Source: Candidatus Bipolaricaulia bacterium (lineage in GTDB: Bacteria; Bipolaricaulota; Bipolaricaulia; JBHIAT01). From it: a DNA stretch of 13,695 nt. Positions 148 through 13,695 of the stretch are shown piece after piece. The stretch spans positions 1 to 13,695 of the forward strand of contig JBHIAT010000095.1 in the NCBI GenBank assembly GCA_046758705.1, written 5' to 3'. Position 1 is the stretch's first letter; each line of letters starts with the position of its first letter. Below the pieces are notes generated by a model. The model ran no database searches. It saw nothing but the letters and a program-made list of their open reading frames with translations, and was not told the DNA's origin. A program made the translations under genes and the position numbers.

Positions 148-1215
148 TCATCCATCACCTCCCTCGCTTCCGATTTTTCTGCTTTTGCTTCCACTTTCTT
201 CGGGTACGGATTTCGCTGTGCAGGATTGACCTTTTACCAACTTAGCCCTCAGGACCTTGGTTCGTGGTAAGCCAGGCTCTTCACCCAGGCCGCAAGCCAG
301 GAGGGACATCGCCTCCTGACCCATCTTGTAGGCGGGGATCTCGATCGTGGTCAGCCGGGGATGGACCCAGGAAGCCAGCGGGATGTTGTCGAAGCCAGCC
401 ACCCCAACCTCCTCAGGAACTCGCACACCTTGCTCCTTGAGTGTATATAGGGTCCCGATCGCCATCAGATCGTTGGCGGCGATGATCGCCTCCGGAGAAC
501 AGTAACGCAACAACCGCTGGGCGGCTTCATAGCCTCCCTCAAATGTGTAGTCCCCTTGCTCCACACAGCAGCGATGGCCCGGGGACAGTCCATGATCGGC
601 CAGAGCACCGAGGTACCCTTCAAACCGGTCCACGGCGGTGGAGACCTCCGGTGGCCCCTGAATAAACGCGATATTGCGGTAGCCCAAGCCCAACATGTGC
701 TGGGTCAGACGGTGGCCATCTCGGAAGCTGTCCACAACCACCGCGGGCACCTCAAGATGAGCCAGCCGCCGATCGGCGATGACCAGTGAGAAACCCTTGT
801 GAAGGAAGCTCTGCAGATGCGCGTTCTCCGCTGACACTGAGGTGACGATGACGCCGTCCACGCGTTCGCGGAGAAGCGTGTCGATGGCGTGATTCTCCCC
901 CTCAAGGGCGTTTTCGCTGTCGCAGATGATGACGGAGTAGTCCTGAGCCCGGGCCTCGCGCTCCACGCCGCGGATCAGCAGGGAGAAGAACGGGTTGGAG
1001 ATGTCGGGCATGATGACACCGATGATGCCCGTCTTCTGCTTGCGCAGCGTTTGAGCTCGCCTGTCAGGGGTGTAGTCTAGCTCCTCAACCGCCTGGAGGA
1101 CGCGCTGACGGGTTTCCTGGCGAATGTAATGCTGCTGACCGTTGAGCACCCGAGACACCGTCGCTGGGGAGACAGCAGCTCGCTGTGCAACATCCTTGAT
1201 AGTCACGTGTCCCAA
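148..1215 (-). CDS. LacI/GalR-family transcriptional regulator
   Basis: N-terminal HTH VTIKDVAQRAAVSPATVSRVLN, hinge LDYTPDRRAQTL, effector-domain motifs IIAANDLMAIG, VPEEVGVAGFDN and PRLTTI. Start placed at TTG 1215 (AGGGGG SD 7 nt upstream); GTG 1206 is an alternative. The ORF-track start at 1245 falls at the predicted transcription start. Confidence 0.95.
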   Translation of the reverse strand: MGHVTIKDVAQRAAVSPATVSRVLNGQQHYIRQETRQRVLQAVEELDYTPDRRAQTLRKQKTGIIGVIMPDISNPFFSLLIRGVEREARAQDYSVIICDSENALEGENHAIDTLLRERVDGVIVTSVSAENAHLQSFLHKGFSLVIADRRLAHLEVPAVVVDSFRDGHRLTQHMLGLGYRNIAFIQGPPEVSTAVDRFEGYLGALADHGLSPGHRCCVEQGDYTFEGGYEAAQRLLRYCSPEAIIAANDLMAIGTLYTLKEQGVRVPEEVGVAGFDNIPLASWVHPRLTTIEIPAYKMGQEAMSLLACGLGEEPGLPRTKVLRAKLVKGQSCTAKSVPEESGSKSRKIGSEGGDG

Positions 1216-1227
1216 GCCATTTCCCCC

Positions 1228-1254
1228 TGAAAACGTTTTCTGCAAACGTTTTAA
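1228..1254. promoter_or_regulatory. Two tandem LacI-family operators
   Basis: Perfect palindrome GAAAACGTTTTC at 1229-1240 and a second site TGCAAACGTTTTAA at 1241-1254 (core AAACGTTT). Both have the central CG typical of LacI-family operators and lie at or just downstream of the predicted lacI transcription start. Confidence 0.8.
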
Positions 1255-1282
1255 TTTTAAACCAACACCCGGTCGAAGTCAA
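1254..1282 (-). promoter_or_regulatory. sigma70-type promoter for lacI
   Basis: Minus strand: TTGACT (1282-1277), 17-bp spacer, TAAAAT (1259-1254). Confidence 0.75.
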
Positions 1283-1346
1283 CTCTGGGCAAAAATCACT
1301 GGCACTTCACAGGATAAGACCGATGGGTACACCTGAGTTCAACGAG

Positions 1347-1375
1347 TCGACAAGCCGTTTTGGTTGTGCTACCCT
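1347..1375 (+). promoter_or_regulatory. Candidate sigma70-type promoter for panB-panE
   Basis: TCGACA (1347-1352), 17-bp spacer, extended -10 TGcTACCCT (hexamer 1370-1375). Confidence 0.45.
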
Positions 1376-1441
1376 GAATTAGATTTCAAACTACCCATCG
1401 GGTGAATCTCCATCCGAAACAGAGGGAGGTGAGGGAATAAA

Positions 1442-2293
1442 ATGACTGAAAAAAGAGATGGAAACAAAATCACTGTCCCAGATCTGAGAGAAATGAAAGA
1501 GAACAGCGAGAAGATTAGCATGATCACCGCTTACGACTACCCCACCGCGCTTCTGGTCGATCGGGCCGGCATCGAGGTCATCCTGGTCGGGGATTCGGTC
1601 GGCAACACCGTCCTGGGATATCCCAACACCATCCCTGTCACGGTAGAGGAGATCTTGCACCATACCAAAGCGGTGATGCGCGGCGTCAACGATGCCCTGG
1701 TGATCGCCGATATGCCGTTCATGTCGTTCAACATCTCAACAGAACAGGCCGTCGAGAACGCCGGTCAGTTCATGAAGGAAGGTGGCGCGGATGCCGTCAA
1801 GCTTGAGGGCGGCCGAGGTGTCGCCGGTACCGTGAAAGCGCTGGCAAGAGCTGGGATTCCGGTCATGGGCCACATCGGATTGACTCCGCAACGGGTCTCC
1901 GAACTCGGCGGGTTCAAAGTCCAGGGTCGAGACCTGAAGCGGGCCCAAGAGTTGCTTGACGACGCGCTGATCCTGGAACAGGCCGGCGCATTCTCGATCG
2001 TCCTGGAGCTCGTTCCCTATCAACTGGCCCAGATCATCACTGACAAAGCCAAGATCCCGACCATCGGCATCGGAGCCGGTCCGTTCTGCGACGGCCAAGT
2101 CCTGGTCATTCATGACATTCTGGGCTTGTCCTTTCGTTTCTCGCCCAAGTTCGTCAAGCAGTATGTGAACCTGGCTGACGAGATCGAGACCGCTCTGACC
2201 ACGTTCAAACGGGAGATCAAAGCGGGCGAATTTCCCAGCGTTGAGACCCACAGCTTCTCGATGAGCGAGGAGGTATTGCAACGACTCCAATAA
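1442..2293 (+). CDS. panB: 3-methyl-2-oxobutanoate hydroxymethyltransferase (ketopantoate hydroxymethyltransferase)
   Basis: Motifs MITAYDYPTA, ILVGDSVGN, VIADMPFMSF, AVKLEGG, VMGHIGLTPQ, IPTIGIGAG, CDGQVLV; SD GGAGGTG upstream. Confidence 0.98.
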   Translation: MTEKRDGNKITVPDLREMKENSEKISMITAYDYPTALLVDRAGIEVILVGDSVGNTVLGYPNTIPVTVEEILHHTKAVMRGVNDALVIADMPFMSFNISTEQAVENAGQFMKEGGADAVKLEGGRGVAGTVKALARAGIPVMGHIGLTPQRVSELGGFKVQGRDLKRAQELLDDALILEQAGAFSIVLELVPYQLAQIITDKAKIPTIGIGAGPFCDGQVLVIHDILGLSFRFSPKFVKQYVNLADEIETALTTFKREIKAGEFPSVETHSFSMSEEVLQRLQ

Positions 2294-3213
2294 AGATCGC
2301 CATCATCGGAGCCGGGGCGATGGGCAGCCTGTTCGGTGGGCTGCTCGCCGAATCCGGGGAACGGGTGTGGCTCTTTGATCCGATCTTCGTGGAACATGTC
2401 GCGCACATCCGATCGGACGGGTTGGTGATCGAAGAGCAGGGTGAGCAGAGAACCGTTCGGGTGAACGCGACGGCCGAGATCGGTGGGGTCGGCGTGGCCG
2501 ATCTCCTGGTCATCTTCGTCAAGGCACCGGACACCGAGGCGGCAGTCCAGGGAGCGCTCCCCGCTATCGGGGATCGGACCCGGGTGTTGAGCCTGCAAAA
2601 CGGCTTGGGAATCGTCGAGACAATCGAAAAACAGATTGACAGAGATCGGATACTCCGCGGCACGACCGCCCATGGAGCCACCTTGCTCGGGCCCGGTCTC
2701 ATCAGACACGCGGGCCGCGGCCCGACAGCGATCGGGACGGCCACCGGCGACCGAGACGGACGTTTAGATAAGATCATTGACGTCTTCAACCGGGCTGATA
2801 TCGAAACCTATTATGTACAGGATACCCATCGGCTGGTCTGGGAGAAGCTGCTCATCAACCTGGCGATCAACCCGTTGACCGCCATCTTCGATGTGGCCAA
2901 TGGCAAGTTGATCTCCGACAACGAGCTGAATCGGATCATGCACCACGTCGTCCGTGAGGGCATCCAGGTGGCTCAGGCAGAGGGTCTAAACATATCTTTC
3001 CAGGAGACGATCGAACAGGTTGAGCAGGTGTGTCGCAACACCGCTGAGAATTTCTCCTCAATGTTGCAGGATGTCAGGCGCAAGGGGCAGACAGAGATCG
3101 AGTTCATCAACGGAGCGGTGGTCAACCGGGGCGATAGGTTGGAAATCGAGACCCCGCTCAACAGACTGCTGATCAAACTGGTGACCACTTCTTCACCGAA
3201 AAGAAGGTCGTGA
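2290..3213 (+). CDS. panE: 2-dehydropantoate 2-reductase (ketopantoate reductase); start codon non-canonical or uncertain
   Basis: Reading from 2290 gives IKIAIIGAGAMGSLFGG (Rossmann GxGxxG), then IFVKA, SLQNGLG, WEKLLINLAINPLTA, SSMLQDV, TEIEFINGAVV. The first ATG (2320) is inside the nucleotide-binding motif. Confidence 0.93.
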   Translation: MKIAIIGAGAMGSLFGGLLAESGERVWLFDPIFVEHVAHIRSDGLVIEEQGEQRTVRVNATAEIGGVGVADLLVIFVKAPDTEAAVQGALPAIGDRTRVLSLQNGLGIVETIEKQIDRDRILRGTTAHGATLLGPGLIRHAGRGPTAIGTATGDRDGRLDKIIDVFNRADIETYYVQDTHRLVWEKLLINLAINPLTAIFDVANGKLISDNELNRIMHHVVREGIQVAQAEGLNISFQETIEQVEQVCRNTAENFSSMLQDVRRKGQTEIEFINGAVVNRGDRLEIETPLNRLLIKLVTTSSPKRRS

Positions 3214-4533
3214 TCAGCCGATGGTTCTGAAACTAGCTGGCAGCCAGTCACCATGGGCTTCGATGAGATCGTCCACCAACGACTCAATCTGCTCTAGATC
3301 CAGTTCAGCCGCGGTGTGAGGATCCATCATCGCTGCGTGGTAGATGTGCTCGCGCTTGCCGGTCAAGGCAGCCTCCACCGTGAGTGCCTGCACGTTGATA
3401 TTAGTTTGCATCAGCGCGGCGAGTTGCGGTGGCAGGCTGCCGATACGCGTCGGCTGAATACCGTTCTTATCGACGAGGCAGGGCACCTCCACGCAGCAGT
3501 CCCCGGGCAGGTTGTCGATGATCTTGTGGTTGGGCACGTTGCCGTACACTACCCGAGGCACACCGGCCTCGAGGCTGTGAATAATCAGCGAGGCGTACTC
3601 ACCACTATGCCCGACCTCAATGGGTTCGTCACCCGTCTCGAGCTCGTCGCGCAGCGCGTCCCATTCGACAATCTGCGTCTGGCAACGACGTATGTATTCA
3701 TCCAGTGGAATGTGGTAACGTTCGATGAGATCGGGGCGGTCGCGCTTGATAAACCACGGTACGTACTCGCTGAAGTGCTCGCTGGACTCCGTGACGAAGT
3801 AGCCTAACCGCTTAAACACCTCATAACGAACGCGGTTCCATTCGGGCACACGGTCCTCGTCGATGACCTTCCGGACCAGCGGGTAGAGGTCTTCACCGTT
3901 ACGCTCGAGTTTGAGGAAAAACGCCAAATGGTTAATGCCGGCGACCACATAGTTGATCTCCTCACCCGGCACACCGATATCCTCCGCCAGTTCCCGAGCA
4001 GTGCCCGAAATGCTGTGGCACAGACCAACCGTCTCGATCTTGCTCGCCCGACTGACTGCCCAGCAGTTCATGGCCATCGGATTCACATGATTCAGATGCA
4101 CCACATCAGGGCAAAGTCGCTCCATATCTCGGCACATCTCAAGCAGCACGGGGATCGTGCGCAAGCCACGCATGATACCGCCGATACCTAACGTATCGGC
4201 GATCGTCTGACGCAGACTGTACTTTTTGGGAATCTCAAAATCGATGACCGTCCCGGGTTTATACCCCGCAACCTGAATCATATTGACGGCATAGTTGGCG
4301 CCATCTAAGGCCACTTTTCGATCGATGGTCACCTCGATCTTGGGCTTGGCACCCAGCGCATCGGCAACCTTGTGTGCCACGATTTCTGACGCCTTGAGAC
4401 GCTCCGCGTCAATGTCAAAAAGACACAGGGTAGACCCTGCCAGTTCGGGAAAGCCGAGGATGTCTCCCATCAGGTTTTTGGCGAAGATGGTGCTTCCTGC
4501 GCCAATAAAGGTGATCTTTACCATCTTTGCCAT
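3214..4533 (-). CDS. melA: Family 4 glycoside hydrolase (NAD+/Mn2+-dependent alpha-galactosidase/alpha-glucosidase, MelA-like)
   Basis: KITFIGAGSTIF, DFEIPKKY, QTIADTLGIGGIMRGLRTIP, NPMAMN, VGLCHS, AGINHL, VTESSEHFSEYVPWFI, CVEVPCLVD, HAAMMDPHT. The exact substrate is not determinable from sequence. Confidence 0.93.
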   Translation of the reverse strand: MAKMVKITFIGAGSTIFAKNLMGDILGFPELAGSTLCLFDIDAERLKASEIVAHKVADALGAKPKIEVTIDRKVALDGANYAVNMIQVAGYKPGTVIDFEIPKKYSLRQTIADTLGIGGIMRGLRTIPVLLEMCRDMERLCPDVVHLNHVNPMAMNCWAVSRASKIETVGLCHSISGTARELAEDIGVPGEEINYVVAGINHLAFFLKLERNGEDLYPLVRKVIDEDRVPEWNRVRYEVFKRLGYFVTESSEHFSEYVPWFIKRDRPDLIERYHIPLDEYIRRCQTQIVEWDALRDELETGDEPIEVGHSGEYASLIIHSLEAGVPRVVYGNVPNHKIIDNLPGDCCVEVPCLVDKNGIQPTRIGSLPPQLAALMQTNINVQALTVEAALTGKREHIYHAAMMDPHTAAELDLEQIESLVDDLIEAHGDWLPASFRTIG

Positions 4534-4542
4534 CGGGTGTCC

Positions 4543-5853
4543 CTAATCCAACTGAAAGATGATCTGCCGATCCCTCTCATCAAGCCGCACTTCGCCCTGC
4601 CAGGTGAAGACCGACGGGCCGGGCAGATAGTCCCGATCGAGCATGAACACGGGTGCAATCTCTGCCAAGAGCAGCTCAAATCGCTTGACCTGGGAGATCG
4701 GTCGCACCGCAAACCGCAGCTCGGCGATCTCCTCGGCCGTCCGTCCCGCAGGCACCTCGATCGTCGTGCGCGCCCAGCCCCCTTTGCGTATGCCACGGAG
4801 CCTGCCGTCATGGTCGTTGGTATGCCAGCGCTCTTCTCCGACGAACCGGATGGCCGCCTGGATCTCCAGGTCGCGGTGCACATAGTAGCCGGCGTAATAC
4901 TTCCTGGCCACCTCGGGAATGTTTGTCCGGTAACCCAGGTAGACGTAGTTCTTGAAGTCACTGACCGCGACCGTGTCCGGATCAGCCTCGGTCTCAACCT
5001 TTCCTTCCCGAGTGAGCTCCAACACCATGATCCGATAGGTCCAGGGGTGACGGTCCATGATGAGCTCCCGAGGGCGACCTTCCGCCGGGACGGTCGGGTC
5101 GGTGCCGGGGAGCGTCTCGGTCGGTGACATGAAGAACCGAAATTTCCCCGTGTCGTCTTCGCACAGGTTGTTATTTGGAGTGCAAACCCGCAGAATCGGA
5201 TGAGCGCCCTGCTTCTTGCCGCGGAACGGCCGATGGCGATGAAACGGAGCTTGAAATTGCTCGTCCACGATTCGGCCACCCTCATCGACGGTGATCCGAT
5301 AGACCCACTCGATATCGGTCGCCCGGCCCCAGCGGGCCATCAGGCCCGGCGTGTCCGTCCCGCCGTCCTCGTTGCTCCATACGACGCTGTACTGGATCAC
5401 CGTCCGGCCGACCTCATCCTGGCCCCGCTCGTGCCACATCACCAGCGGCACATCACTATAATTATTTTCTGGTCGCCCGTAGAGGATCGGGCTGTGTTGG
5501 TAAACGATAAAATCAGGATCGCCTGGCCGGTGAGGAATGAAGTCCACCTGCTCAACCGTGGCCCCCTGAGCTTGGGGACTCGATTTCTCCGAGGCGAAGA
5601 CGAACAGGACGGTGTGCGCTCCCGGCTCCAGACGGCCGAGCAGCGTTCGGTATTCGAAGGGCTGCTCTCCCATGAACAGAACGATGTCCTGGCTGTAGAG
5701 ATCGTCCACGTAGACGGTCAGGACCCCCGATTCGGCGTCTTGCCTGCCCCAATCGGCTCCCAACGCCTGAGCGGTCACCACCATCTCGACCTCAGCCACG
5801 GTCGCCACAGAGAACTCGGTCATATAGATCGGTGGTCCGTCAAGATCGATCAT
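4543..5853 (-). CDS. Hypothetical protein of unknown function (436 aa)
   Basis: Long ORF filling the gap between two recognisable genes (3-nt and 9-nt spacers). Protein-like, beta-rich composition with an acidic/aromatic block YSVVWSNEDGGTDTPGLMARWGRATDIEWVY. No obvious signal peptide. Confidence 0.85.
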   Translation of the reverse strand: MIDLDGPPIYMTEFSVATVAEVEMVVTAQALGADWGRQDAESGVLTVYVDDLYSQDIVLFMGEQPFEYRTLLGRLEPGAHTVLFVFASEKSSPQAQGATVEQVDFIPHRPGDPDFIVYQHSPILYGRPENNYSDVPLVMWHERGQDEVGRTVIQYSVVWSNEDGGTDTPGLMARWGRATDIEWVYRITVDEGGRIVDEQFQAPFHRHRPFRGKKQGAHPILRVCTPNNNLCEDDTGKFRFFMSPTETLPGTDPTVPAEGRPRELIMDRHPWTYRIMVLELTREGKVETEADPDTVAVSDFKNYVYLGYRTNIPEVARKYYAGYYVHRDLEIQAAIRFVGEERWHTNDHDGRLRGIRKGGWARTTIEVPAGRTAEEIAELRFAVRPISQVKRFELLLAEIAPVFMLDRDYLPGPSVFTWQGEVRLDERDRQIIFQLD

Positions 5854-5856
5854 GAT

Positions 5857-6687
5857 CTAAAGCTCAGGCCTCCCGGCATCGACCCAGGCGGTGTACCACA
5901 GGCTGGCAATGTCAGCAGCGGCTTGGTTGAATGCCCCCTGCATCGCATCGCCCGCACCCTCCTCCCACAGGGTTTGATAGTATCCCCATTCGGCTAACGA
6001 GTAGCGTGCCGCCGCCTTCGTGTCGGCCCGAAGCACCGGATCGAGCAGTCGATGGCTTTCAGCGATGATCCCGAACGCGTACTCGAGCGGGTCGTCAACG
6101 TACCAGGCCGGTTGAGGGACAAAGTAACCGTCCTTCCAGAAGAAGTCGACGAACGCCGTCTCGAAGCGTGCATGAATCCCGAAGTTCCCGGTTTGCTGAC
6201 CGTCATGGTTCTGAGTGGTGTGGAGTGGTTGGTTCGCATCGGCGACGTAGTGGCTCAGGTCGGCGGCTTTGTTCAGCAACATCTTAATATCTCCGGCCCG
6301 CATCGCCTCGGTTAACTCGTCAACCGTCACAGCGATCGCCCAGGGCAGAATCCCGATCCGGTAGACGGTCTGCTCACCGTACTTAGCGATCAAGGCGGCG
6401 AGGTCGCGGGAGACATGGGCGAACGGGTAGCTGTCATAATAGTCGATGTCGATGTAGTGCTTAGGAGCCTCGACCCCATCCTCCCCTTTGCGGCGGTCGG
6501 GGTCGAGGGCATGTTCGACAAGAAAGTCGCGATGGACAGCGAAGAAACCCTGTAACGGGGCCGGCAGGTTCTCCACCGCGTAGCGAGTCACCGCCTGGTG
6601 CGCCTTCGGCCCCCAGGGGTAGACGTGCACCGCCGGGGCGATGAGCAGTATGAGCAACGATAGCAAGCCGGCGACGAATCGGATCAC
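5857..6687 (-). CDS. Secreted S1/P1 nuclease / zinc-dependent phospholipase C superfamily protein
   Basis: Hydrophobic leader followed by WGPKAH (Zn-binding W-x4-H), DPD, HYIDID, GILPW, LSHYVADANQPLH, GIHARFE. Start placed at GTG 6687, which overlaps the upstream TGA stop (GTGA). Confidence 0.88.
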   Translation of the reverse strand: MIRFVAGLLSLLILLIAPAVHVYPWGPKAHQAVTRYAVENLPAPLQGFFAVHRDFLVEHALDPDRRKGEDGVEAPKHYIDIDYYDSYPFAHVSRDLAALIAKYGEQTVYRIGILPWAIAVTVDELTEAMRAGDIKMLLNKAADLSHYVADANQPLHTTQNHDGQQTGNFGIHARFETAFVDFFWKDGYFVPQPAWYVDDPLEYAFGIIAESHRLLDPVLRADTKAAARYSLAEWGYYQTLWEEGAGDAMQGAFNQAAADIASLWYTAWVDAGRPEL

Positions 6688-7322
6688 TGCTTTTGATAGA
6701 CCAGAGTCAACCATATCGGCGTGCGGTCCTCGTGGATCTTCTCGAACCCTTGAGCTCTGATCCAACCCTGGATCCGGTCTGAATCATGATAGAACGGATG
6801 GAACGAGAACCGCAATAACTTCATCACAAACACCTGAACTTTAAAGCCGAGCCAGACCCACCAGGTCGGCCTCGGATAGGTCACCGCGTAGATATCCCGG
6901 GTCTTCCCCAGCGATCGATTCACCAGACTCTCGGCATCCGGATAGCAGCAGATCACCTTGTCCAGGATCGTGATATCCGCTTCAGGAAGCTCCGGAGCGA
7001 TCTCGACGAAATCTCCCAGATGATAATCGACTCTGTCGCTGTAACTGAGCTCCTCAGCCAGCTTTTCGGCCTCTTTCGCCATGCCCTCCGAGATCTCGAC
7101 CCCCACAGCGCCACGCGCTCCTGTTTCCAACAAGCTCATGTGCAGGAATCCGACCCCAAATCCGATCTCAAGGATATCCTTGTCTTCGATCCCGCCTCGC
7201 TTGATCCCCTCGACCAGGGACATCTGACTCTTCCCGAGCCCCTTGTTGCGGAATCGCTGGCTCATGCGGCTCGCCTGTCTGGAAAAGAACCGGTTCGTCC
7301 CTTCAGTCTTGCAACAGGACAC
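6684..7322 (-). CDS. Class I SAM-dependent methyltransferase
   Basis: Motif I ILEIGFGVG, GVEISEG, GDFVE, ADITILDKVICCYPD. Start placed at GTG 7322 (MSCCKTEG...) behind a strong SD AAGGAGGGGG. Confidence 0.88.
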   Translation of the reverse strand: MSCCKTEGTNRFFSRQASRMSQRFRNKGLGKSQMSLVEGIKRGGIEDKDILEIGFGVGFLHMSLLETGARGAVGVEISEGMAKEAEKLAEELSYSDRVDYHLGDFVEIAPELPEADITILDKVICCYPDAESLVNRSLGKTRDIYAVTYPRPTWWVWLGFKVQVFVMKLLRFSFHPFYHDSDRIQGWIRAQGFEKIHEDRTPIWLTLVYQKQ

Positions 7323-7363
7323 CCTGACCCCCCCTCCTTGAATACACTGTTCTTGATGAGAAT

Positions 7364-7391
7364 AGTATACCGTTCTTGCTGGGAAAATCAA
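7364..7391 (-). promoter_or_regulatory. Candidate internal sigma70-type promoter upstream of the methyltransferase
   Basis: Minus strand: TTGATT (7391-7386), 16-bp spacer, TATACT (7369-7364), in an AT-rich 65-nt gap. Confidence 0.5.
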
Positions 7392-8191
7392 CCGTTCGGT
7401 TCGATGATCCGTATCTGCCACGGGCCGTTGAGTACGATCTCCGGACCGTTGAACCGCTTGAGCTCCCCGGTCACCTCCACCACCCGTCCCCGGTAACTGG
7501 CGATCGGATCGATCCCCACCTCTCGGAACGTCGGGACGTTCTCGGCGAAGATGACCGCGGTGAAGTCGGTCCGATGGTCTTCTCCGGCGTTAAGAAAGAT
7601 GACCCGGCCCGAATCGTATGCGTCCAGGACCCGGAACCGCACGGTCACCATCTGCCCCAGGTACTCTACCGTGTGGGCTTCTGCCTGTTCGACTGAGATG
7701 GTCCGGTGATCCTTCCACATCCCACGACGATCGGCGGCCGCTTCGATCTGCATCCGCTCAAAGTAGGCCCGGTACTTCGTGTTCGGGGGGATGGAGAGCA
7801 GATCCGCCACACCCTGGCGGACCAACTCCCCATTGACGAACACCCATTCCCCGTCGCGTTGGACGTAGACGTAGGCGAGCAACCGATCGTGGATATCCCG
7901 CCGATCGAGATCGTACTCGATCTTGACCTGCTGATACAGGACGAGTTCCTGATTGAGATCCGAGGCTTCCCCTGCATAGGGCTCGGGGGTCGGATGGACC
8001 TCGGGCGTATCGATCCCGATGTAACGGATCCGTTCCATGTTACTGAGCAGGATGGTGTCACCATCGAAGACCCGGACGACGAATGCCGTCTCGGTTGCCC
8101 AGGCGGGGTCCGGTTGCAGCGGCTGAGCGTGGACGACCGATACACAAAGCGTTAGCACCAGCCAGACGATAAGCGGTTGTTTCCTATGCAT
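7388..8191 (-). CDS. Secreted thermonuclease (staphylococcal nuclease family) with C-terminal OB-fold-like domain
   Basis: ATG 8191 with SD AGGAG; signal peptide MHRKQPLIVWLVLTLCVSVVHA; SNase motifs VRVFDGDT, RYIGIDTPE, DIHDRLLAYVY, NGELVRQG, RRGMW; C-terminal ~95 aa with YLGQMVTV, VIFLN, FTAVIF, VEVTGELKRFNGPEIVL. Confidence 0.92.
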   Translation of the reverse strand: MHRKQPLIVWLVLTLCVSVVHAQPLQPDPAWATETAFVVRVFDGDTILLSNMERIRYIGIDTPEVHPTPEPYAGEASDLNQELVLYQQVKIEYDLDRRDIHDRLLAYVYVQRDGEWVFVNGELVRQGVADLLSIPPNTKYRAYFERMQIEAAADRRGMWKDHRTISVEQAEAHTVEYLGQMVTVRFRVLDAYDSGRVIFLNAGEDHRTDFTAVIFAENVPTFREVGIDPIASYRGRVVEVTGELKRFNGPEIVLNGPWQIRIIEPNG

Positions 8192-8202
8192 TATATGTTC
8201 TC

Positions 8203-9120
8203 CTACTGGTAGTGAACCCGTCGCTGGAGCAACTTCATCTGGATGAGTGTGAGGATGAAGATGATGAAGAACAGCACATAGGCCGCCGCCGATGCATACC
8301 CCATGCGCCACTCGCCGAACGCTTTCTGGAACAGGTACACGACGATCGTCATCGAGCTGTTCAACGGACCGCCTCGACCACCCGGGAACAGGACGTAGAT
8401 CTCGTCGAACACCTTGAACGCGCCGATCGACGAGATGATCAACACGAAGAAGATCGTCGGCGACAACAGCGGCAGCGTGATGCGTCGAAACAGTTGCCAG
8501 CTGGAGGCGCCGTCGACCTTGGCCGCGTCGTAGAACTGCCGATCGATGTTCTGCAAGCCGGCCAGGAAGATGACGATCTGAAAGCCAATGTACTTCCAGA
8601 TGCTCAAGAGAATGACGGCAGGCATTGTGAACTCCGGACTGTTGAGCCAATCGATCGGTCCGATCCCCACCCGGCCGAGGAAGTAGTTCACCAGCCCGAA
8701 ATCTCGGTCGTAGATCCAGCGAAACACCAGCGTCGCCGCCACCGTCGGTGTGATATAGGCGATGAAGAACGACGTGCGAAATATCGAGCGGCCCTTGATC
8801 CGGGCGTTGAGCAGGACCGCCACCCCGAGCGCCAGCGCCATCGTCGGGACCACACTGCCGAGCACGTAATAGACGGTGTTCCACAGGGACTTCCAGAACA
8901 ACTCATCCTGGAGCAGTTCCCGGTAGTTGCCCAGGCCGATGAACCGCTTGATCGGGTTGATGAAGTCCCAGTCGAACAGACTCAACGCGAACGACCGGTA
9001 GACGGGGTAGAAGGTGAACGTTCCTAGGATGACGAATGCAGGCAGCAGGTAGAGGTAAGCGCGGGCGGTATCAGCCCAGAACCGCTTCGATCTCAACCGC
9101 TCTGATACCAATAACTTCAT
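8203..9120 (-). CDS. Carbohydrate (CUT1) ABC transporter permease, UgpA/MalF-like
   Basis: Multiple TM segments, FIGLGNY, EAA loop LAGLQNIDRQFYDAAKVDGAS, ITLPLLSPT, GYASAAA. Confidence 0.95.
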   Translation of the reverse strand: MKLLVSERLRSKRFWADTARAYLYLLPAFVILGTFTFYPVYRSFALSLFDWDFINPIKRFIGLGNYRELLQDELFWKSLWNTVYYVLGSVVPTMALALGVAVLLNARIKGRSIFRTSFFIAYITPTVAATLVFRWIYDRDFGLVNYFLGRVGIGPIDWLNSPEFTMPAVILLSIWKYIGFQIVIFLAGLQNIDRQFYDAAKVDGASSWQLFRRITLPLLSPTIFFVLIISSIGAFKVFDEIYVLFPGGRGGPLNSSMTIVVYLFQKAFGEWRMGYASAAAYVLFFIIFILTLIQMKLLQRRVHYQ

Positions 9121-9131
9121 TCAGATCAAGT

Positions 9132-9170
9132 GGGATGGAGGAGAGGAACCTGCCTCCTCTCCTCCATCCC
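9132..9170. other. 16-bp perfect inverted repeat (mRNA-stabilising hairpin or weak terminator)
   Basis: GGGATGGAGGAGAGGA (9132-9147), 7-nt loop, TCCTCTCCTCCATCCC (9155-9170), between the SBP and permease genes. No U-tract follows on the minus strand. Confidence 0.85.
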
Positions 9171-9180
9171 TGGACAATTT

Positions 9181-9220
9181 AACTTTTCAACTTTGTTAAC
9201 CTTCCAACTTTTCAACTGTT
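9181..9220. repeat. Degenerate 7-9-nt tandem repeat (AACTTTTC-like) x5
   Basis: aacttttc aactttgtt aaccttcc aacttttc aactgtt, abutting the SBP stop codon. Confidence 0.8.
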
Positions 9221-10465
9221 TTATCCACCCTTGGCGAGCAGCTCGTTGACCTTAGCAGCGGCGATGCTCAACGCCTCCTCCGGGGTGGCTCGATCGAGCA
9301 GCACCAGCTCCAGAGCGTTGCCGATGAGGTTTCTGATACCAAACCACTCCGCGTGATGGGGGTAGACGAACCCGTCGAGCAGTTCGTCGCTCGTTGCCCG
9401 CACCGCCGGGTTATTATCCAGATAGCCCTCCCACATCCCCGATCGGATCGCAGACACGGTCACCGGCAGGTACCCGGTCTCCTCAGCCCAGAAGACGGTG
9501 TTTTCCTCGCGGAGCAGGAACTCGATGTACCGGGCGGCAGCGCTGATCTGCTCAGGGGAAGCTTTCCGGAACACCCCGAGGTTCGTCCCCTGGATCATCG
9601 ATTGAGAGTTGACCGGTCCGGCGGGCAGCGGCGCGGCGCTCCAGCCGTGGTTGCCTTCGCTGGCCCGAGCCACGAACGGGATGCCGGCCGATGAGCCGAT
9701 GTACATGGCCACCTTGCCCCCACCGAACACGTCGGACAGATAGGCAGACTGGAACAGGCTGACATCCTTCATCTTCCTCAAAAACTGGAGTGCCGAGACT
9801 CCAGCCTCCGAGTTGAACCGCGCCTTCCCCATGTCCGGTGACAGGAACTGGCCACCGGCCTGGCGGAAGAAGACCGAGAACATCTCAGGATAGGCGCGGA
9901 GTCCGAAGCCGTATTGGTCAATGGTGCCGTCCCCGTCGAGGTCAACCGTCAGCTCCTGGGCTATCTCGTAGAGCTCGTCCCAGGTCGCCGGCGGTGTCTC
10001 GATCAGATCGGTGTTGTAGTACAACACCATCGCACTCTTGTTGAACGGCAGCGTGGTCAACACCAAGTCGTAGGTGTTCGATTCAAGCAACGACTCGGGC
10101 AGATCCCGGACGATCGTGTTACTGAAGTAGGGCTCGAGCGGCACCAACGCGTCCGCCCGCAGCAGCATCGCCGTCCAGTCCTCGTACATCTGAGACATGG
10201 TGGGAGGCTGGCCGGCGGCGGTCGATGCAATCAACTTCTGGTTCAGAGCACCGTAATTTCCCTGATAGACCAGCTCCACCTCGATATCCGGGTTCTCGGT
10301 CATGAACTTCTCAGTCAACGCCTTCAGTGCCTGTTGATGCGATTGGCTCATGGCGTGCCAGAAGGTGATCTTGACCTGGGCCAACACCACCGGTGTCACC
10401 CAGGTCACCAACGCCAACATCAGGAGGACAACTATCGCACTTCTCCAAGCAACTGTCTTATGCAT
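9221..10465 (-). CDS. ABC transporter extracellular solute-binding protein (family 1, UgpB/MalE-like)
   Basis: SD GAGGAGG; Sec-type signal peptide ending VLA with no lipobox Cys; KITFWHAM, VELVYQGNY, LPFNKSAMVLYYNTD, PPATWDEL, GKVAMYIGSSAG, QGTNL, TGYLPV. Confidence 0.95.
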   Translation of the reverse strand: MHKTVAWRSAIVVLLMLALVTWVTPVVLAQVKITFWHAMSQSHQQALKALTEKFMTENPDIEVELVYQGNYGALNQKLIASTAAGQPPTMSQMYEDWTAMLLRADALVPLEPYFSNTIVRDLPESLLESNTYDLVLTTLPFNKSAMVLYYNTDLIETPPATWDELYEIAQELTVDLDGDGTIDQYGFGLRAYPEMFSVFFRQAGGQFLSPDMGKARFNSEAGVSALQFLRKMKDVSLFQSAYLSDVFGGGKVAMYIGSSAGIPFVARASEGNHGWSAAPLPAGPVNSQSMIQGTNLGVFRKASPEQISAAARYIEFLLREENTVFWAEETGYLPVTVSAIRSGMWEGYLDNNPAVRATSDELLDGFVYPHHAEWFGIRNLIGNALELVLLDRATPEEALSIAAAKVNELLAKGG

Positions 10466-10566
10466 CGATCAACCTCCTCTTACTGGTACAGGGATTGGAG
10501 TTGAGTCTACCAGCTCACCTCTTCACGCTTCTTTCTCTGGTTATCCCCTCCTTTCTTTTTTTTTGC

Positions 10567-10588
10567 AACTTTCTAACTTTTAACTGTT
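10567..10588. repeat. Degenerate 7-8-nt tandem repeat (AACTTT-like) x3
   Basis: aactttct aactttt aactgtt, abutting the permease stop codon; same unit as 9181-9220. Confidence 0.7.
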
Positions 10589-11476
10589 TTATCGGATCCC
10601 ACTCCGGGCGATTCCCTGGATGAACTGCTTTTGGGCAATGAAGAACAGCAACAGGATCGGTAGGATCGCCACCGTCGAGGCAGCCATCAACTGCTCATAG
10701 AGCGTGCCTGCCTCAGTGCTGAACGTCGCCAGCCCCACCGGGAAGGTGCGCATCTTCGGTGTGTTCGTCACGATCAGCACCCACAGGAACGCGTTCCAAC
10801 TGCCGATGAACTTGAACAGGGCGACGGTGACCAGCGCCGGTCGCGCCAGCGGGACCATGATCCGCCACAGGAATCGCAGCCGGCTGCAGCCGTCTATCTG
10901 TGCCGCATCCCACAGCTCATTGGGTGTCGTCAGGAAAAACTGTCGCAACAGGAAGATCCCGAAGACCGAGACGATCCACGGGATGATGAGCGCGTAGTAG
11001 GTGTCGATCCATTTGAGCCGGGTCAGTGTGATGTAGTTCGGGATGAGCAGCATCTCCCCCGGGATCATCAACGTCCCCAGGAACAATATGAAGATGACGT
11101 TCTTGCCGAAGAAGTCCATCTTGGCAAACGCGTAGGCGGCGAAGATGGTGGTGATCAGCTCGGCAATGGTGACGGTGATCGCCACGAAGAAACTGTTGAA
11201 GAAGTAACGTCCGAACGGGGCGGCGTTCCAGGCAATCGAAAAATTCTCCCAGCGGAACACGCTTGGGATCCATTTCGGTGGCATCAGCGCGATCTCGGTC
11301 GGTGGCTTGAGCGATGTGGAGACCATCCACAGGAACGGGAGGATCATGATGAACGACCCTAAGATGAGCAGAAGATAGATGGTCAGTCGTGCCGGTGAGA
11401 GGTTCGAGATCCGTCCCATAAGCTTGCTTCGGACCGGTGTTGGACCGTTCAGCGTGCGCACTCCACCCCGCTGCAT
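10589..11476 (-). CDS. Carbohydrate (CUT1) ABC transporter permease, UgpE/MalG-like
   Basis: PFLWMVSTSLK, YFFNSF, AAYAFAK, FGIFLLRQFF, EAA loop ELWDAAQIDGCS, WNAFLW, AQKQFIQGI. Start uncertain (ATG 11476 or ATG 11419). Confidence 0.95.
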   Translation of the reverse strand: MQRGGVRTLNGPTPVRSKLMGRISNLSPARLTIYLLLILGSFIMILPFLWMVSTSLKPPTEIALMPPKWIPSVFRWENFSIAWNAAPFGRYFFNSFFVAITVTIAELITTIFAAYAFAKMDFFGKNVIFILFLGTLMIPGEMLLIPNYITLTRLKWIDTYYALIIPWIVSVFGIFLLRQFFLTTPNELWDAAQIDGCSRLRFLWRIMVPLARPALVTVALFKFIGSWNAFLWVLIVTNTPKMRTFPVGLATFSTEAGTLYEQLMAASTVAILPILLLFFIAQKQFIQGIARSGIR

Positions 11477-11593: not shown

Positions 11594-13695
11594 TTACGAA
11601 GTCCTCTCAGGCGTGACCAGAAATAGCAGCGACGGCAAGACCAACAGCGATGCCGCCAATGCCAAAAAGATCATGATCGCCGTCAGGATACCATATGCGG
11701 AGAACATCGGCATTGGCGCAAACCCCATGATGGCAAACCCAGCGATGCTCGACACCCCAGAGCTCAGTAACGCCACCCCCGTGCCTCGCGCCGCCTGACA
11801 CAGCGCCTGAACCCTGCCTCCCAATCTGGCCAACTCCTCGCGAAACCGTTCGGTCATGTGGATCGAATAGTCGACGCCTATGCCGATCGATATAGCGGCA
11901 ATCAGGGCGGTCACGAAGTTGAGTGCAAACCCGGCCAGGTACATCAACGCATACAACCAGGCCACCACCAGCCCAATGGGAATGATGGTGACGACGGCGA
12001 ACCTCACCGACCGCAGGGCCATCATGATGACCAGGAAGCAGGAAAACGCTGCGATGGGCAGGGCGATGTTTAAGGATCGAGTGACGGCGTTTAAGGTCGC
12101 CTCCCGGATGACAGGTGACCCCGTCAGACCGACCAGCGAGATCGAGGGGATTTCCTTTAAGACCTGAAAGTTCTCTTCCAAGGCGTTGCGGGCGGCGGTA
12201 ACCACCGACTGCTCTCGGGTGCCCGGGATCCCGACCACCAATGTGGTGGCATCCTCCTCAGCACCCGTGGGATCGTGAAACAGCGTCTCCCGGGCTCGTG
12301 CGGCTTCATAGGCCAGGGTGTCCTCATCGAGAGGCACACCATGTTGGACCATATAGTCGTAAGCTGCGTTGATCTGCTCGTTCGTATCGGGAATCCCATC
12401 ATGGTTGGCATCCTCGATCTTCACCCCGGTGACTCGGTTTACCTGGCTTCGCGCATACTCACTCTCGGTGAGGCGTCTCAACAGAGCGAATACCGTCGTG
12501 CCTTGCAAGTTCAGCTCGCCATCCGTGTCTTTTGCCAAGTAGGGGTTGCGCTCCATGGTGTCCAATAGTTCTTGCATAGTTTCTAAAGCTGCCGGATCGG
12601 TCAGGTCCCCCTGGATGTAGATGATGCCGGGTTCACCCCCGATTTCGCCCACGTGCTCGTCTACCTTATCCAAACTCACCACGAAGTCCGACTGGTTATC
12701 GAAGAAGTCTTTGACATCGAAGGTGGGTTCCAACTTCAACGCATAAAAGATAGCCGCAGCCGTGATAGCAGCCACCACGGGCAGCAACAAGGTCCGGTTG
12801 TTTGCCAGCTTGACGATCACAGACGCCAGGGCTCCCGACGACATGGGCTCCTTCACAGCCGGGGCACCCTGTGATGGGGATGGGTTTTCTTGGCCCGTCA
12901 CAGGCGTGAGTATAGTCCTCCGAGCATTCCGGCGTACCGTGACCATCACGGGCAGTCCAAGGCCCAGAATAACAGACAGGAAGATGACTCCAACACCTAT
13001 GAGCGGATTAATTGCCACCAGAGCGATCACGCCGAAGGCGGACAAGGAAGCCACACCGGCCATATTGATGGATCGCACCACGATCATTGCCCCAGACTTC
13101 TGGTGGCCAGCGATAGCTCCTTCCCTGAGGGCATCGATACGCATCATGGCCAGAGGGACCACAACGCCAAGAACGATAAACGAGGCGATGACCGCTATGC
13201 CGGCGGCGATGCCGAATTGGAACACGCCCTCTATATCCGACGACAGATTGGAGAGAAACGCGACCCCGTCGGTCATCATCGCCAGCGTCAGCGCGCCCAG
13301 GACGCCTGCAATGCCCAACAGAAACGCTCGACGAGGCACATACTCCTTCCGCCGCTCCTCCTGATAACGACGTAGGGCGTGGATGGCAAAGTCCACCCCC
13401 AGGGAGATCATGGCAATCGGCACGATCAAGTCGATAATCAGCCCAGACTTCAGTCCGATCAGATTGGAGATCCCCTTGAGCCAGATCATGAGGATCCCCA
13501 ACCCGGAACCCGTCAGCGCCACCGCCCAGTAAGAACGCAGGCTGATCCCGACCACCACCAGCACCGCGATCACCGTGAACATGATGAACGGACCGGCAGT
13601 CTCGCCCTCGTCCTCGCTCTCCAAGTTGACGTCAATGGCTATGCCCCAGAGACGGTAACTCTGCTGCTCTCCTCTCAGCATGCGCTGGACGTTCC
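11594..13695 (-). CDS. MMPL/RND-superfamily membrane transporter (5'-partial)
   Basis: Two TM bundles with paired motifs ISLGVDFAIH...RYQEE and IGIGVDYSIH...RFREE, a large soluble loop between them, C-terminal LLVLPSLL. The frame stays open from 13681 to the window edge. Confidence 0.92.
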   Translation of the reverse strand, partial: NVQRMLRGEQQSYRLWGIAIDVNLESEDEGETAGPFIMFTVIAVLVVVGISLRSYWAVALTGSGLGILMIWLKGISNLIGLKSGLIIDLIVPIAMISLGVDFAIHALRRYQEERRKEYVPRRAFLLGIAGVLGALTLAMMTDGVAFLSNLSSDIEGVFQFGIAAGIAVIASFIVLGVVVPLAMMRIDALREGAIAGHQKSGAMIVVRSINMAGVASLSAFGVIALVAINPLIGVGVIFLSVILGLGLPVMVTVRRNARRTILTPVTGQENPSPSQGAPAVKEPMSSGALASVIVKLANNRTLLLPVVAAITAAAIFYALKLEPTFDVKDFFDNQSDFVVSLDKVDEHVGEIGGEPGIIYIQGDLTDPAALETMQELLDTMERNPYLAKDTDGELNLQGTTVFALLRRLTESEYARSQVNRVTGVKIEDANHDGIPDTNEQINAAYDYMVQHGVPLDEDTLAYEAARARETLFHDPTGAEEDATTLVVGIPGTREQSVVTAARNALEENFQVLKEIPSISLVGLTGSPVIREATLNAVTRSLNIALPIAAFSCFLVIMMALRSVRFAVVTIIPIGLVVAWLYALMYLAGFALNFVTALIAAISIGIGVDYSIHMTERFREELARLGGRVQALCQAARGTGVALLSSGVSSIAGFAIMGFAPMPMFSAYGILTAIMIFLALAASLLVLPSLLFLVTPERTS

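Follow-up and report, generated by a model that had tools for sequence, protein, structure and literature searches.

A Bipolaricaulota-wide importer-nuclease locus with a probable role in harvesting extracellular nucleic acid

Introduction

In Mycoplasma agalactiae, the gene for a staphylococcal-type nuclease (SNase) is transcribed together with those for a solute-binding lipoprotein and a sugar-type ABC transporter, and the operon has been proposed to import nucleic-acid precursors (PMC3585158). Here, we describe a locus of similar makeup in a different phylum, the Bipolaricaulota, where a row of ABC importer genes is followed by a gene for a predicted secreted SNase. The locus lies on contig JBHIAT010000095.1 of a Candidatus Bipolaricaulia genome bin (3.7 Mb, 93.9% complete), and the window that we analyzed is that whole contig, 13,695 bp in length. 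From comparison with related genomes, we consider that the first four genes (permease, binding protein, permease and SNase; 10589 to 7388) probably represent, in this genome, an operon found across the Bipolaricaulota that serves to gather nucleic acid from outside the cell.

Two other sets of described proteins are relevant to this locus. The class I (P1/S1) 3'-nucleotidase/nucleases of Leishmania serve purine salvage (PMC13232948). The Thermus thermophilus protein of PDB entry 7C0F is identified in a 2025 PNAS paper as a binder of uridylyl-3'-5'-phosphoguanosine (U3G, UpG) (PMC12718374, SI Table S5). According to section 9 of that paper, 7C0F, UgpB and a mycobacterial glycerophosphocholine binder form one CUT1 sub-clade, which shares phosphate-coordinating residues, two Tyr and two Ser (PMC12718374). 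An initial annotation of the window, made from its sequence, had stated that no described pathway combines genes of this kind. That statement is not supported: the mycoplasma pairing of an SNase with a sugar-type ABC transporter has already been read as import of nucleic-acid precursors (PMC3585158). For the lineage itself, we found no title or abstract describing this operon in Bipolaricaulota, Acetothermia or Bipolaricaulis.

Results

The row consists of eight co-directional genes on the minus strand, between 3214 and 11476 of the window, which we confirmed by open reading frame (ORF) calls together with a scan against Pfam and NCBIfam. In order of transcription, these are as follows.

10589..11476, minus: ABC permease, UgpE/MalG-like, CUT1 type (BPD_transp_1, 52.7 bits)
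9221..10465, minus: secreted solute-binding protein (SBP) of the UgpB/GPC/U3G clade (SBP_bac_8 and SBP_bac_1)
8203..9120, minus: ABC permease, UgpA/MalF-like (BPD_transp_1, 77.6 bits)
7388..8191, minus: secreted staphylococcal-type nuclease, SNase (SNase, 67.2 bits)
6684..7322, minus: class-I S-adenosylmethionine (SAM)-dependent methyltransferase, start uncertain (Methyltransf_25/31/11, 27-30 bits)
5857..6687, minus: putative secreted trinuclear-zinc phosphoesterase of the S1/P1 nuclease-phospholipase C superfamily, here called the Zn enzyme (sub-cut-off Pfam matches)
4543..5853, minus: 436-aa protein with CBM-like, NLP-like and PLAT-like domains (no Pfam or NCBIfam family)
3214..4533, minus: GH4 glycosidase, alpha-galactosidase subfamily, cytoplasmic type (Glyco_hydro_4 and Glyco_hydro_4C)

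The gene order, coordinates and gaps given in the initial annotation were confirmed: from the second permease onward the gaps of 11, 65, -4, 3 and 9 nt were reproduced when GTG 7322 was taken as the start of the methyltransferase and GTG 6687 as that of the Zn enzyme. Other starts are possible at ATG 7265 for the methyltransferase and at ATG 6714 for the Zn enzyme, the latter being the start of a 285-aa database record (P0121), and longer ORF bounds are also open for both (6684-7421 and 5857-6765, respectively). Spacing among the ABC genes is larger (123 and 100 nt). The SNase gene starts 11 nt past the second permease and in the same direction, so that a nuclease lies beside the importer. Signal peptides on both nuclease-family proteins, noted earlier, were seen again; these and that of the SBP were read by eye from the translations, not by a predictor. 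No ABC_tran domain, and thus no ABC ATPase, was found among the 12 window proteins scanned. CUT1 systems often share an ATPase that is encoded elsewhere.

The pairing of importer and nuclease recurs across the phylum. From a set of 184 genomes, all of one class, we took the DNA around 94 places, 92 of them located through SBP matches and two found via the Zn enzyme. The SBP was labelled in 93 of the 94, giving 93 loci in 92 genomes and 33 genera; 83 of these loci were informative, in that a gene was present downstream of the importer, and in the other 10 the contig ends downstream of the SBP. The first non-ABC gene downstream of the SBP was an SNase at 32 loci, a fusion of SNase and a purple-acid-phosphatase-like (PAP-like) part at 9, a PAP-like protein at 10, an AP_endonuc_2 (endonuclease IV family) TIM barrel at 9, an S1/P1-like protein at 2 and some other gene at 21. 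Genes of these five nuclease or phosphoesterase groups therefore hold the first position at 62 of the 83 informative loci, and SNase, alone or fused to the PAP-like part, holds it at 41. When the interval from -4 to +5 genes was considered, SNase was present at 44 of the 93 loci, a PAP-like gene at 52, thymidine kinase at 36 and UPRTase at 7. By genus, SNase lies beside the importer in 18 of the 33 and a PAP-like gene in 21, and at least one of four phosphoesterase types is found in 31.

The usual order in the relatives is a divergent thymidine kinase, then permease, SBP, permease, SNase and PAP-like metallophosphoesterase, and at most of the 93 loci the place of the 10589-11476 permease is taken by its orthologue. 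Pfam confirmed representatives of the PAP-like, thymidine kinase, UPRTase and AP_endonuc_2 groups, together with one 638-aa SNase+PAP fusion. Single proteins of about 640 aa that join SNase and PAP-like parts stand directly after the importer at L212:4844-6760 (minus), at L206 and at seven more loci. The neighborhood comparison that the initial annotation had proposed as a check gave a divided answer: adjacency of importer and phosphoesterase is kept across the phylum, and the 436-aa protein is linked to the importer in no relative.

One genus, g5 (L210, L211, L212, L217, L269, L275 and L277), also encodes, beside the nuclease-importer operon, a GH57 protein of 961 aa whose C-terminal module is of the glucodextranase type, and a second CUT1 binding protein adjoins the GH57 gene in six of these seven loci.

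The binding protein gives an indication of what the importer may carry. Orthologues of the SBP (E <= 1e-30) occur in 108 of the 184 genomes of the phylum, and its close homologues bear the source names Candidatus Bipolaricaulota, Acetothermia or Bipolaricaulis. A homologue with 42% identity is found in Anoxybacter fermentans. Its best PDB match is 7C0F, which aligns over the full length (E 1.3e-42, 149 bits; residues 29-410 against 15-395), followed by E. coli UgpB (4AQ4) at 114 bits, with maltose and sugar binders at no more than 76 bits. By this sequence comparison, the SBP is closest to the dinucleotide-binding protein, ahead of UgpB. Against the UgpB equivalog model NF008211 it scores 121.7 bits, under the cut-off of 411; the best NCBIfam matches of the two permeases are likewise under cut-off, at 148.7 bits for UgpE (10589-11476; cut-off 297) and 129 bits for UgpA (8203-9120).

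The nuclease itself is a clear family member. It matches Pfam PF00565 with 67.2 bits over residues 54-161 (cut-off 21), and when it was aligned with the S. aureus nuclease, the DGDT, R, DTPE and R(LAY) motifs, which we take to hold the catalytic and Ca-binding residues, were all kept. Its hydrophobic N-terminus, judged by eye, is a predicted signal peptide. The C-terminal extension of about 105 aa (window 7388-7711) has no Pfam match; it seems to be conserved, since the SNases of the relatives have a similar total length (251-277 aa).

The Zn enzyme required more care, as it falls short of two Pfam models: it scores 25.8 bits against Zn_dep_PLPC (PF00882; cut-off 26.8) and 21.4 bits against S1-P1_nuclease (PF02265; cut-off 29.5), and a PDB search with it gave no meaningful match. 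Two relatives, G043 and G113, carry homologues that are 52% and 45% identical to it. These homologues pass the S1-P1 cut-off (34.7 and 51.0 against 29.5 bits) and not that of phospholipase C (PLC), and in both genomes the S1/P1-like gene stands directly after the orthologous importer, whose SBP is 42% and 39% identical, respectively, to that of the window. The wider family comprises at least 493 clusters. In its alignment W34, H39, H86, D159 and H165 are invariant, D73 and H155 are kept in at least 90% of sequences, and an invariant WG..H marks the mature N-terminus; these conserved positions are typical of the trinuclear-zinc S1/P1-PLC superfamily and may correspond to zinc ligands, of which S1/P1 nucleases have nine, beginning with the Trp at the N-terminus of the mature protein. 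The family consensus GIHxRxE has Glu where S1/P1 enzymes have Asp. In 13 of 80 metagenome loci holding S1/P1-like members (among L088-L167, e.g., L094, L095 and L097), the next gene (+1) encodes adenosine deaminase, a count in which several loci come from similarly named records and may not be independent. Given the behavior of the G043 and G113 homologues, at the S1-P1 cut-off and in their adjacency to the importer, and given these adenosine deaminase neighbors, we infer that the Zn enzyme is a nuclease/3'-nucleotidase. It occupies the slot in which most relatives carry the PAP-like gene, and would represent a non-orthologous replacement.

In G113, a gene for a small DHH/DHHA1-type phosphoesterase, with weak Pfam matches, lies divergently upstream of the importer (L087:5787-6611, minus). 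In other bacteria, such enzymes break down dinucleotides.

To relate the locus to nucleotide economy, we compared the distribution of the SBP with that of purM, counting a purM match at a best E <= 1e-40. In family f5, purM was found in 0 of 50 genomes and the SBP in 44 of 50; in f4, the counts were 11 of 18 and 1 of 18; in f7, 7 of 9 and 0 of 9; and in f9, 4 of 4 and 3 of 4. No purM match better than E 1e-11 was present in the 50 f5 genomes, which include a 99%-complete single-contig genome, and from this one marker the absence of purM suggests purine auxotrophy in f5. The opposition of purM and SBP is no more than a tendency, with both present in several genomes of f3.

Taken together, these observations allow us to outline how the operon would work. 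SNase-family enzymes leave 3'-phosphorylated products, and with this established family chemistry the secreted SNase would cut DNA or RNA to 3'-phosphorylated mono- and dinucleotides. A second secreted phosphoesterase would then trim the 3'-phosphate or cut further; in most relatives this would be the PAP-like protein, sometimes fused to the SNase, and in this genome and two relatives the zinc enzyme of the S1/P1-PLC superfamily appears to fill the position. By removing the terminal phosphate of NpNp, a 3'-phosphoesterase would produce NpN, the kind of molecule that 7C0F binds. The SBP would bind the products, most plausibly UpG-type dinucleoside monophosphates and perhaps nucleotides or nucleosides, and the two permeases would import them with the help of an ATPase encoded elsewhere. 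Salvage enzymes, such as the thymidine kinase that flanks the operon in relatives, would put the imported products to use.

A number of observations weigh against this reading. The relatives' genomes are kin, so the locus counts overstate independence, and the ORF labels behind them were assigned by phmmer from few queries (the window proteins and representatives of neighbor clusters) on crude ORF calls. At 21 of the 83 informative loci some other gene lies downstream, in some cases a plainly unrelated one, for example SPFH/Band_7 or a subtilase. In family f6, the TIM-barrel gene and UPRTase are present and SNase lies beside the importer at 0 of 9 loci. The SBP is only about one-third identical to 7C0F. 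The Zn enzyme scores slightly better against the phospholipase C model than against the S1/P1 model, and its last metal ligand is presumably the Glu, as in PLC. Near the wider Zn-enzyme family, an ABC importer or SNase was found in 0 of the 80 metagenome loci, 48 of which span at least 8 kb. Finally, this genome carries purM, at 387 bits, as well as the SBP, and given that purM is present here, the genome is not dependent on purine salvage.

The initial annotation had offered nucleic-acid scavenging as the function of all eight genes. For five of them, the importer, the SNase and the S1/P1-like enzyme, the idea holds, on the strength of the conserved phosphoesterase adjacency, the thymidine kinase neighbor, the likeness to 7C0F and the S1/P1-like gene in the PAP-like slot. 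It is unsupported for the methyltransferase, the 436-aa protein and GH4, as is the notion that the eight form one system: within -4 to +5 genes, each of the three is found at 0 of the 93 loci, and their homologues in relatives lie on other contigs. Homologues of the methyltransferase occur in 3 of the 183 other genomes of the phylum, unlinked to the importer, and its PDB matches cover only the SAM-binding region. GH4, with domains PF02056 and PF11975, passes the NF011657 alpha-galactosidase subfamily model (677 bits against 486), a model that does not fix its substrate. GH4 homologues are found for the most part in family f6, where they do not share a contig with the importer, and this genome has three GH4 paralogues. 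By comparison with the relatives' loci, the methyltransferase, the 436-aa protein and GH4 have been added behind the core in this genome only. Their tight spacing suggests co-expression; that they act on the same substrate as the core is unsupported. Nothing was found in this analysis in favor of glycosylated phage DNA, the more speculative substrate named earlier.

Further features of the window are as follows.

7364..7391, minus: promoter-like hexamers, TTGATT-16-TATACT, weak, in the 65-nt gap after SNase
11594..13693, minus: RND/MMPL (HAE3-like) transporter, truncated at the end of the contig and lying upstream of the first permease at a distance of 117 nt
148..1245, minus: LacI-family regulator, beyond panB/panE

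In the relatives, the slot of the RND/MMPL gene is usually held by the divergent thymidine kinase; the thymidine kinase of this genome lies at the start of another contig, C148. Between the LacI-family regulator and GH4 (window 148-3213), panB and panE lie on the plus strand, and panE and GH4 converge with no gap, their stop codons abutting.

Several explanations other than a nucleic-acid-harvesting core with added genes can be considered. The row could consist of two transcription units that are adjacent by chance, the conserved importer-SNase operon and a cassette of unrelated or decaying function that was gained recently and comprises the methyltransferase, Zn enzyme, 436-aa protein and GH4. 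In favor of this, the only promoter-like site on the minus strand of the region falls in the sole sizeable gap, of 65 nt; for three of the four cassette genes, nothing corresponding is found at this locus in relatives; and a signal peptide, normal for the family of the 436-aa protein, has been lost from the copy here. Set against this, the Zn enzyme stands directly after the orthologous importer in two other genomes, which indicates that this gene, at least, is part of the core. Promoter-like matches are also no more frequent than chance would give, as two such sites were found in the region against 3.9 expected, and the site at 7364-7391 accordingly counts as a lead but not as evidence. Read-through from upstream would fit the gaps of -4, 3 and 9 nt, as does the absence of any terminator-like site from the intergenic gaps of the row (across the region, 11 such sites were counted against 7.1 +/- 3.0 in shuffles, only slightly above). 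On balance, we regard two unrelated units as unlikely, though they deserve more consideration than the explanations that follow.

The 436-aa protein bears on a second alternative. It matches no Pfam or NCBIfam entry, and it belongs to a large uncharacterized family, with at least 1308 homologue clusters in other phyla (E <= 0.001); no relatives were found in 60 genomes of the class. Secreted members occur in species of Neobacillus, Paenibacillus and Streptomyces. Most aligned members carry signal peptides, lipoboxes or type IX secretion system (T9SS) tails. The window copy has no signal peptide and starts five residues before the conserved domain. The TAG of the Zn enzyme, one ATC codon and the ATG of the 436-aa protein lie in the same frame (5851-5862), so that the TAG stands two codons before the ATG, and it is this in-frame stop that leaves the window protein without the signal peptide of its relatives. 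The stretch, including the junction at 5853-5859, is matched by contigs of three public runs of one study; these runs are possibly the source of the DNA and are not independent support. No RNA run is listed as containing the stretch. A fusion of the Zn enzyme and the 436-aa protein, with the TAG read as Gln, was searched against 1.84 billion representatives and rejected, none of the best 150 matches spanning both halves.

An AlphaFold2 model of the 436-aa protein (pLDDT 94.6) separates it into three parts. Residues 4-109 resemble CBM6/35/36 modules (Z up to 9.6), and the C-terminal third is PLAT-like, matching the PLAT domains of clostridial alpha-toxin and lipoxygenase (Z 8-9.6). The central domain, folded alone (pLDDT 85.6), resembles two structures of Nep1-like proteins (NLPs), with Z scores of 10.2 (rmsd 2.5, 122 aa) and 9.9, and the next match, an unrelated one, drops to 4.5. 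By sequence the central domain has no PDB or Pfam match, and NPP1 (PF05630) matched none of 37 central-domain sequences even at E <= 10. Foldseek with the whole model returned partial CBM-type matches only.

Genomic context sets this family apart from the importer. In the ORFs of 80 genome loci around its members, no homologue of the window SNase, Zn enzyme, methyltransferase or GH4 was found (phmmer, E <= 1e-3). At nine loci, from Marinimicrobia, Calditrichia and KSB1, the 436-aa homologue is followed by GH130 genes, of which there are usually two, and in six of the nine a CUT1 importer follows in turn, with an SBP only 20% identical to that of the window. Homologues with a T9SS tail head tight GH130 mannoside operons in these groups (L016:299-7421, L008, L010, L011, L017, L025 and L005). 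In other phyla, neighbors include GDPD phosphodiesterases (L002 and L003) and GH38 (L061 and L072), and a weak PLC-like gene adjoins the homologue in L009. This family context points to a role with glycans or glycolipids, not with nucleic acid.

One could accordingly read the whole row as a system that scavenges phospholipid or glycolipid head groups, in which the Zn enzyme would be a phospholipase C, glycolipid head groups and membranes would be bound by the 436-aa protein, a Ugp-like importer would take up phospho-alcohols or glycerophosphodiesters, and GH4 would remove alpha-linked sugars in the cytoplasm. UgpB, UgpA and UgpE are indeed the best NCBIfam names for the importer; all of these scores are far under their cut-offs, and the SBP is nearer to the dinucleotide binder than to UgpB. 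The Zn enzyme favors the idea by its higher score for Zn_dep_PLPC and by the H...E motif at its last metal site, and tells against it in that its closest homologues pass the S1/P1 and not the PLC cut-off. Similarly, the NLP-like core and PLAT-like C-terminal domain of the 436-aa protein, and the GDPD and PLC-like genes adjoining its homologues, would suit work on lipids; here, though, the protein is without a signal peptide, and it occurs with this importer in no relative. The importer's conserved partners are SNase, PAP-like proteins and thymidine kinase, not lipases. We therefore think it improbable that the row as a whole serves this purpose. A narrower version, in which the Zn enzyme, the NLP-fold/PLAT protein and GH4 would together obtain head groups from phospho-lipids or phospho-glycans that bear sugars, of the glycosylinositol phosphorylceramide (GIPC), glycosylphosphatidylinositol (GPI) or phosphomannan type, while sharing the phosphate-ester importer with the nuclease module, and in which the 436-aa family would be unrecognized NLP-fold bacterial binders or cleavers of glycans or glycolipids, is a speculation that we hold to be doubtful.

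Least convincing is an ordinary alpha-galactoside operon, in which a CUT1 sugar importer and GH4 stand under a LacI-family repressor with the nucleases as passengers; GH4 lies above the alpha-galactosidase subfamily cut-off, a LacI-family regulator is present at 148-1245, homologues of the SBP go under the name 'multiple sugar transport system substrate-binding protein' in some sources and CUT1 importers usually carry sugars, yet GH4 is absent from all 93 orthologous importer loci with the relatives' copies on other contigs, the opposite-strand panB and panE separate the regulator from the row, and the SBP groups with phosphate-ester binders (7C0F and UgpB) well above its maltose- and sugar-binder matches, and we consider this explanation very unlikely.

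Discussion

That 'sugar-type' ABC importers beside surface nucleases carry nucleic-acid cargo has long been proposed and never shown. To this proposal the Bipolaricaulota add a pairing that is phylum-wide, an SBP that is closest to the only solved dinucleotide-binding SBP, and an operon that is commonest in a family in which no purM was found. They also suggest a product chain that can be tested, from SNase to NpNp, from NpNp through a 3'-phosphoesterase to NpN, and then to uptake by the importer. These observations suggest that many small-genome Bipolaricaulota live on the DNA and RNA of other cells. The 436-aa family, being large, confidently modelled and unnamed, is in its own right a good target for new carbohydrate- or lipid-directed activity.

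The known systems that this locus calls to mind differ from it in distinct ways. The central domain of the 436-aa protein shares its fold with the NLP cytolysins of plant pathogens (Z 10.2 and 9.9). It differs from them in having no sequence similarity to Pfam NPP1 or to any PDB chain and in being flanked by CBM-like and PLAT-like domains. Members of its family come from bacteria of sediment, soil and the sea, where their genes often belong to GH130 sugar operons, with no sign of toxicity. The E. coli Ugp importer of glycerol-3-phosphate and glycerophosphodiesters is alike in transporter family and supplies the best NCBIfam names; in contrast to Ugp, the proteins here score far under the equivalog cut-offs, their partners are nucleases and not GlpQ/UgpQ, and UgpC is absent from the row. 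The U3G-binding protein of T. thermophilus (7C0F), from the same CUT1 sub-clade as UgpB, is the best solved match of the SBP, with an identity of about one-third.

The Leishmania enzymes are likewise secreted or surface zinc enzymes of the same superfamily that act ahead of the uptake of nucleic-acid breakdown products (PMC13232948). The window's Zn enzyme differs in that it is bacterial, scores under the S1-P1 Pfam cut-off and has a PLC-like residue at the last metal site.

The nearest counterparts are the mycoplasma operons of M. agalactiae (MAG_5030-5070) and M. hyopneumoniae (mhp379). There too, the gene for a surface nuclease of the SNase family runs in the same direction as those for a solute-binding protein and sugar-type ABC permeases, and this adjacency is conserved across a lineage (PMC3585158). 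The Bipolaricaulota locus belongs to a different phylum, and the likeness described here is one of gene arrangement, in which the nuclease follows the permeases here and precedes them there. It also has neither an ATPase gene in the row nor a lipobox, and three further genes are present in this genome. Loci of this lineage typically have, in addition, another phosphoesterase of the PAP-like or S1/P1-like type and a thymidine kinase at the flank. The system is a lineage-specific variant of a known, still unproven kind.

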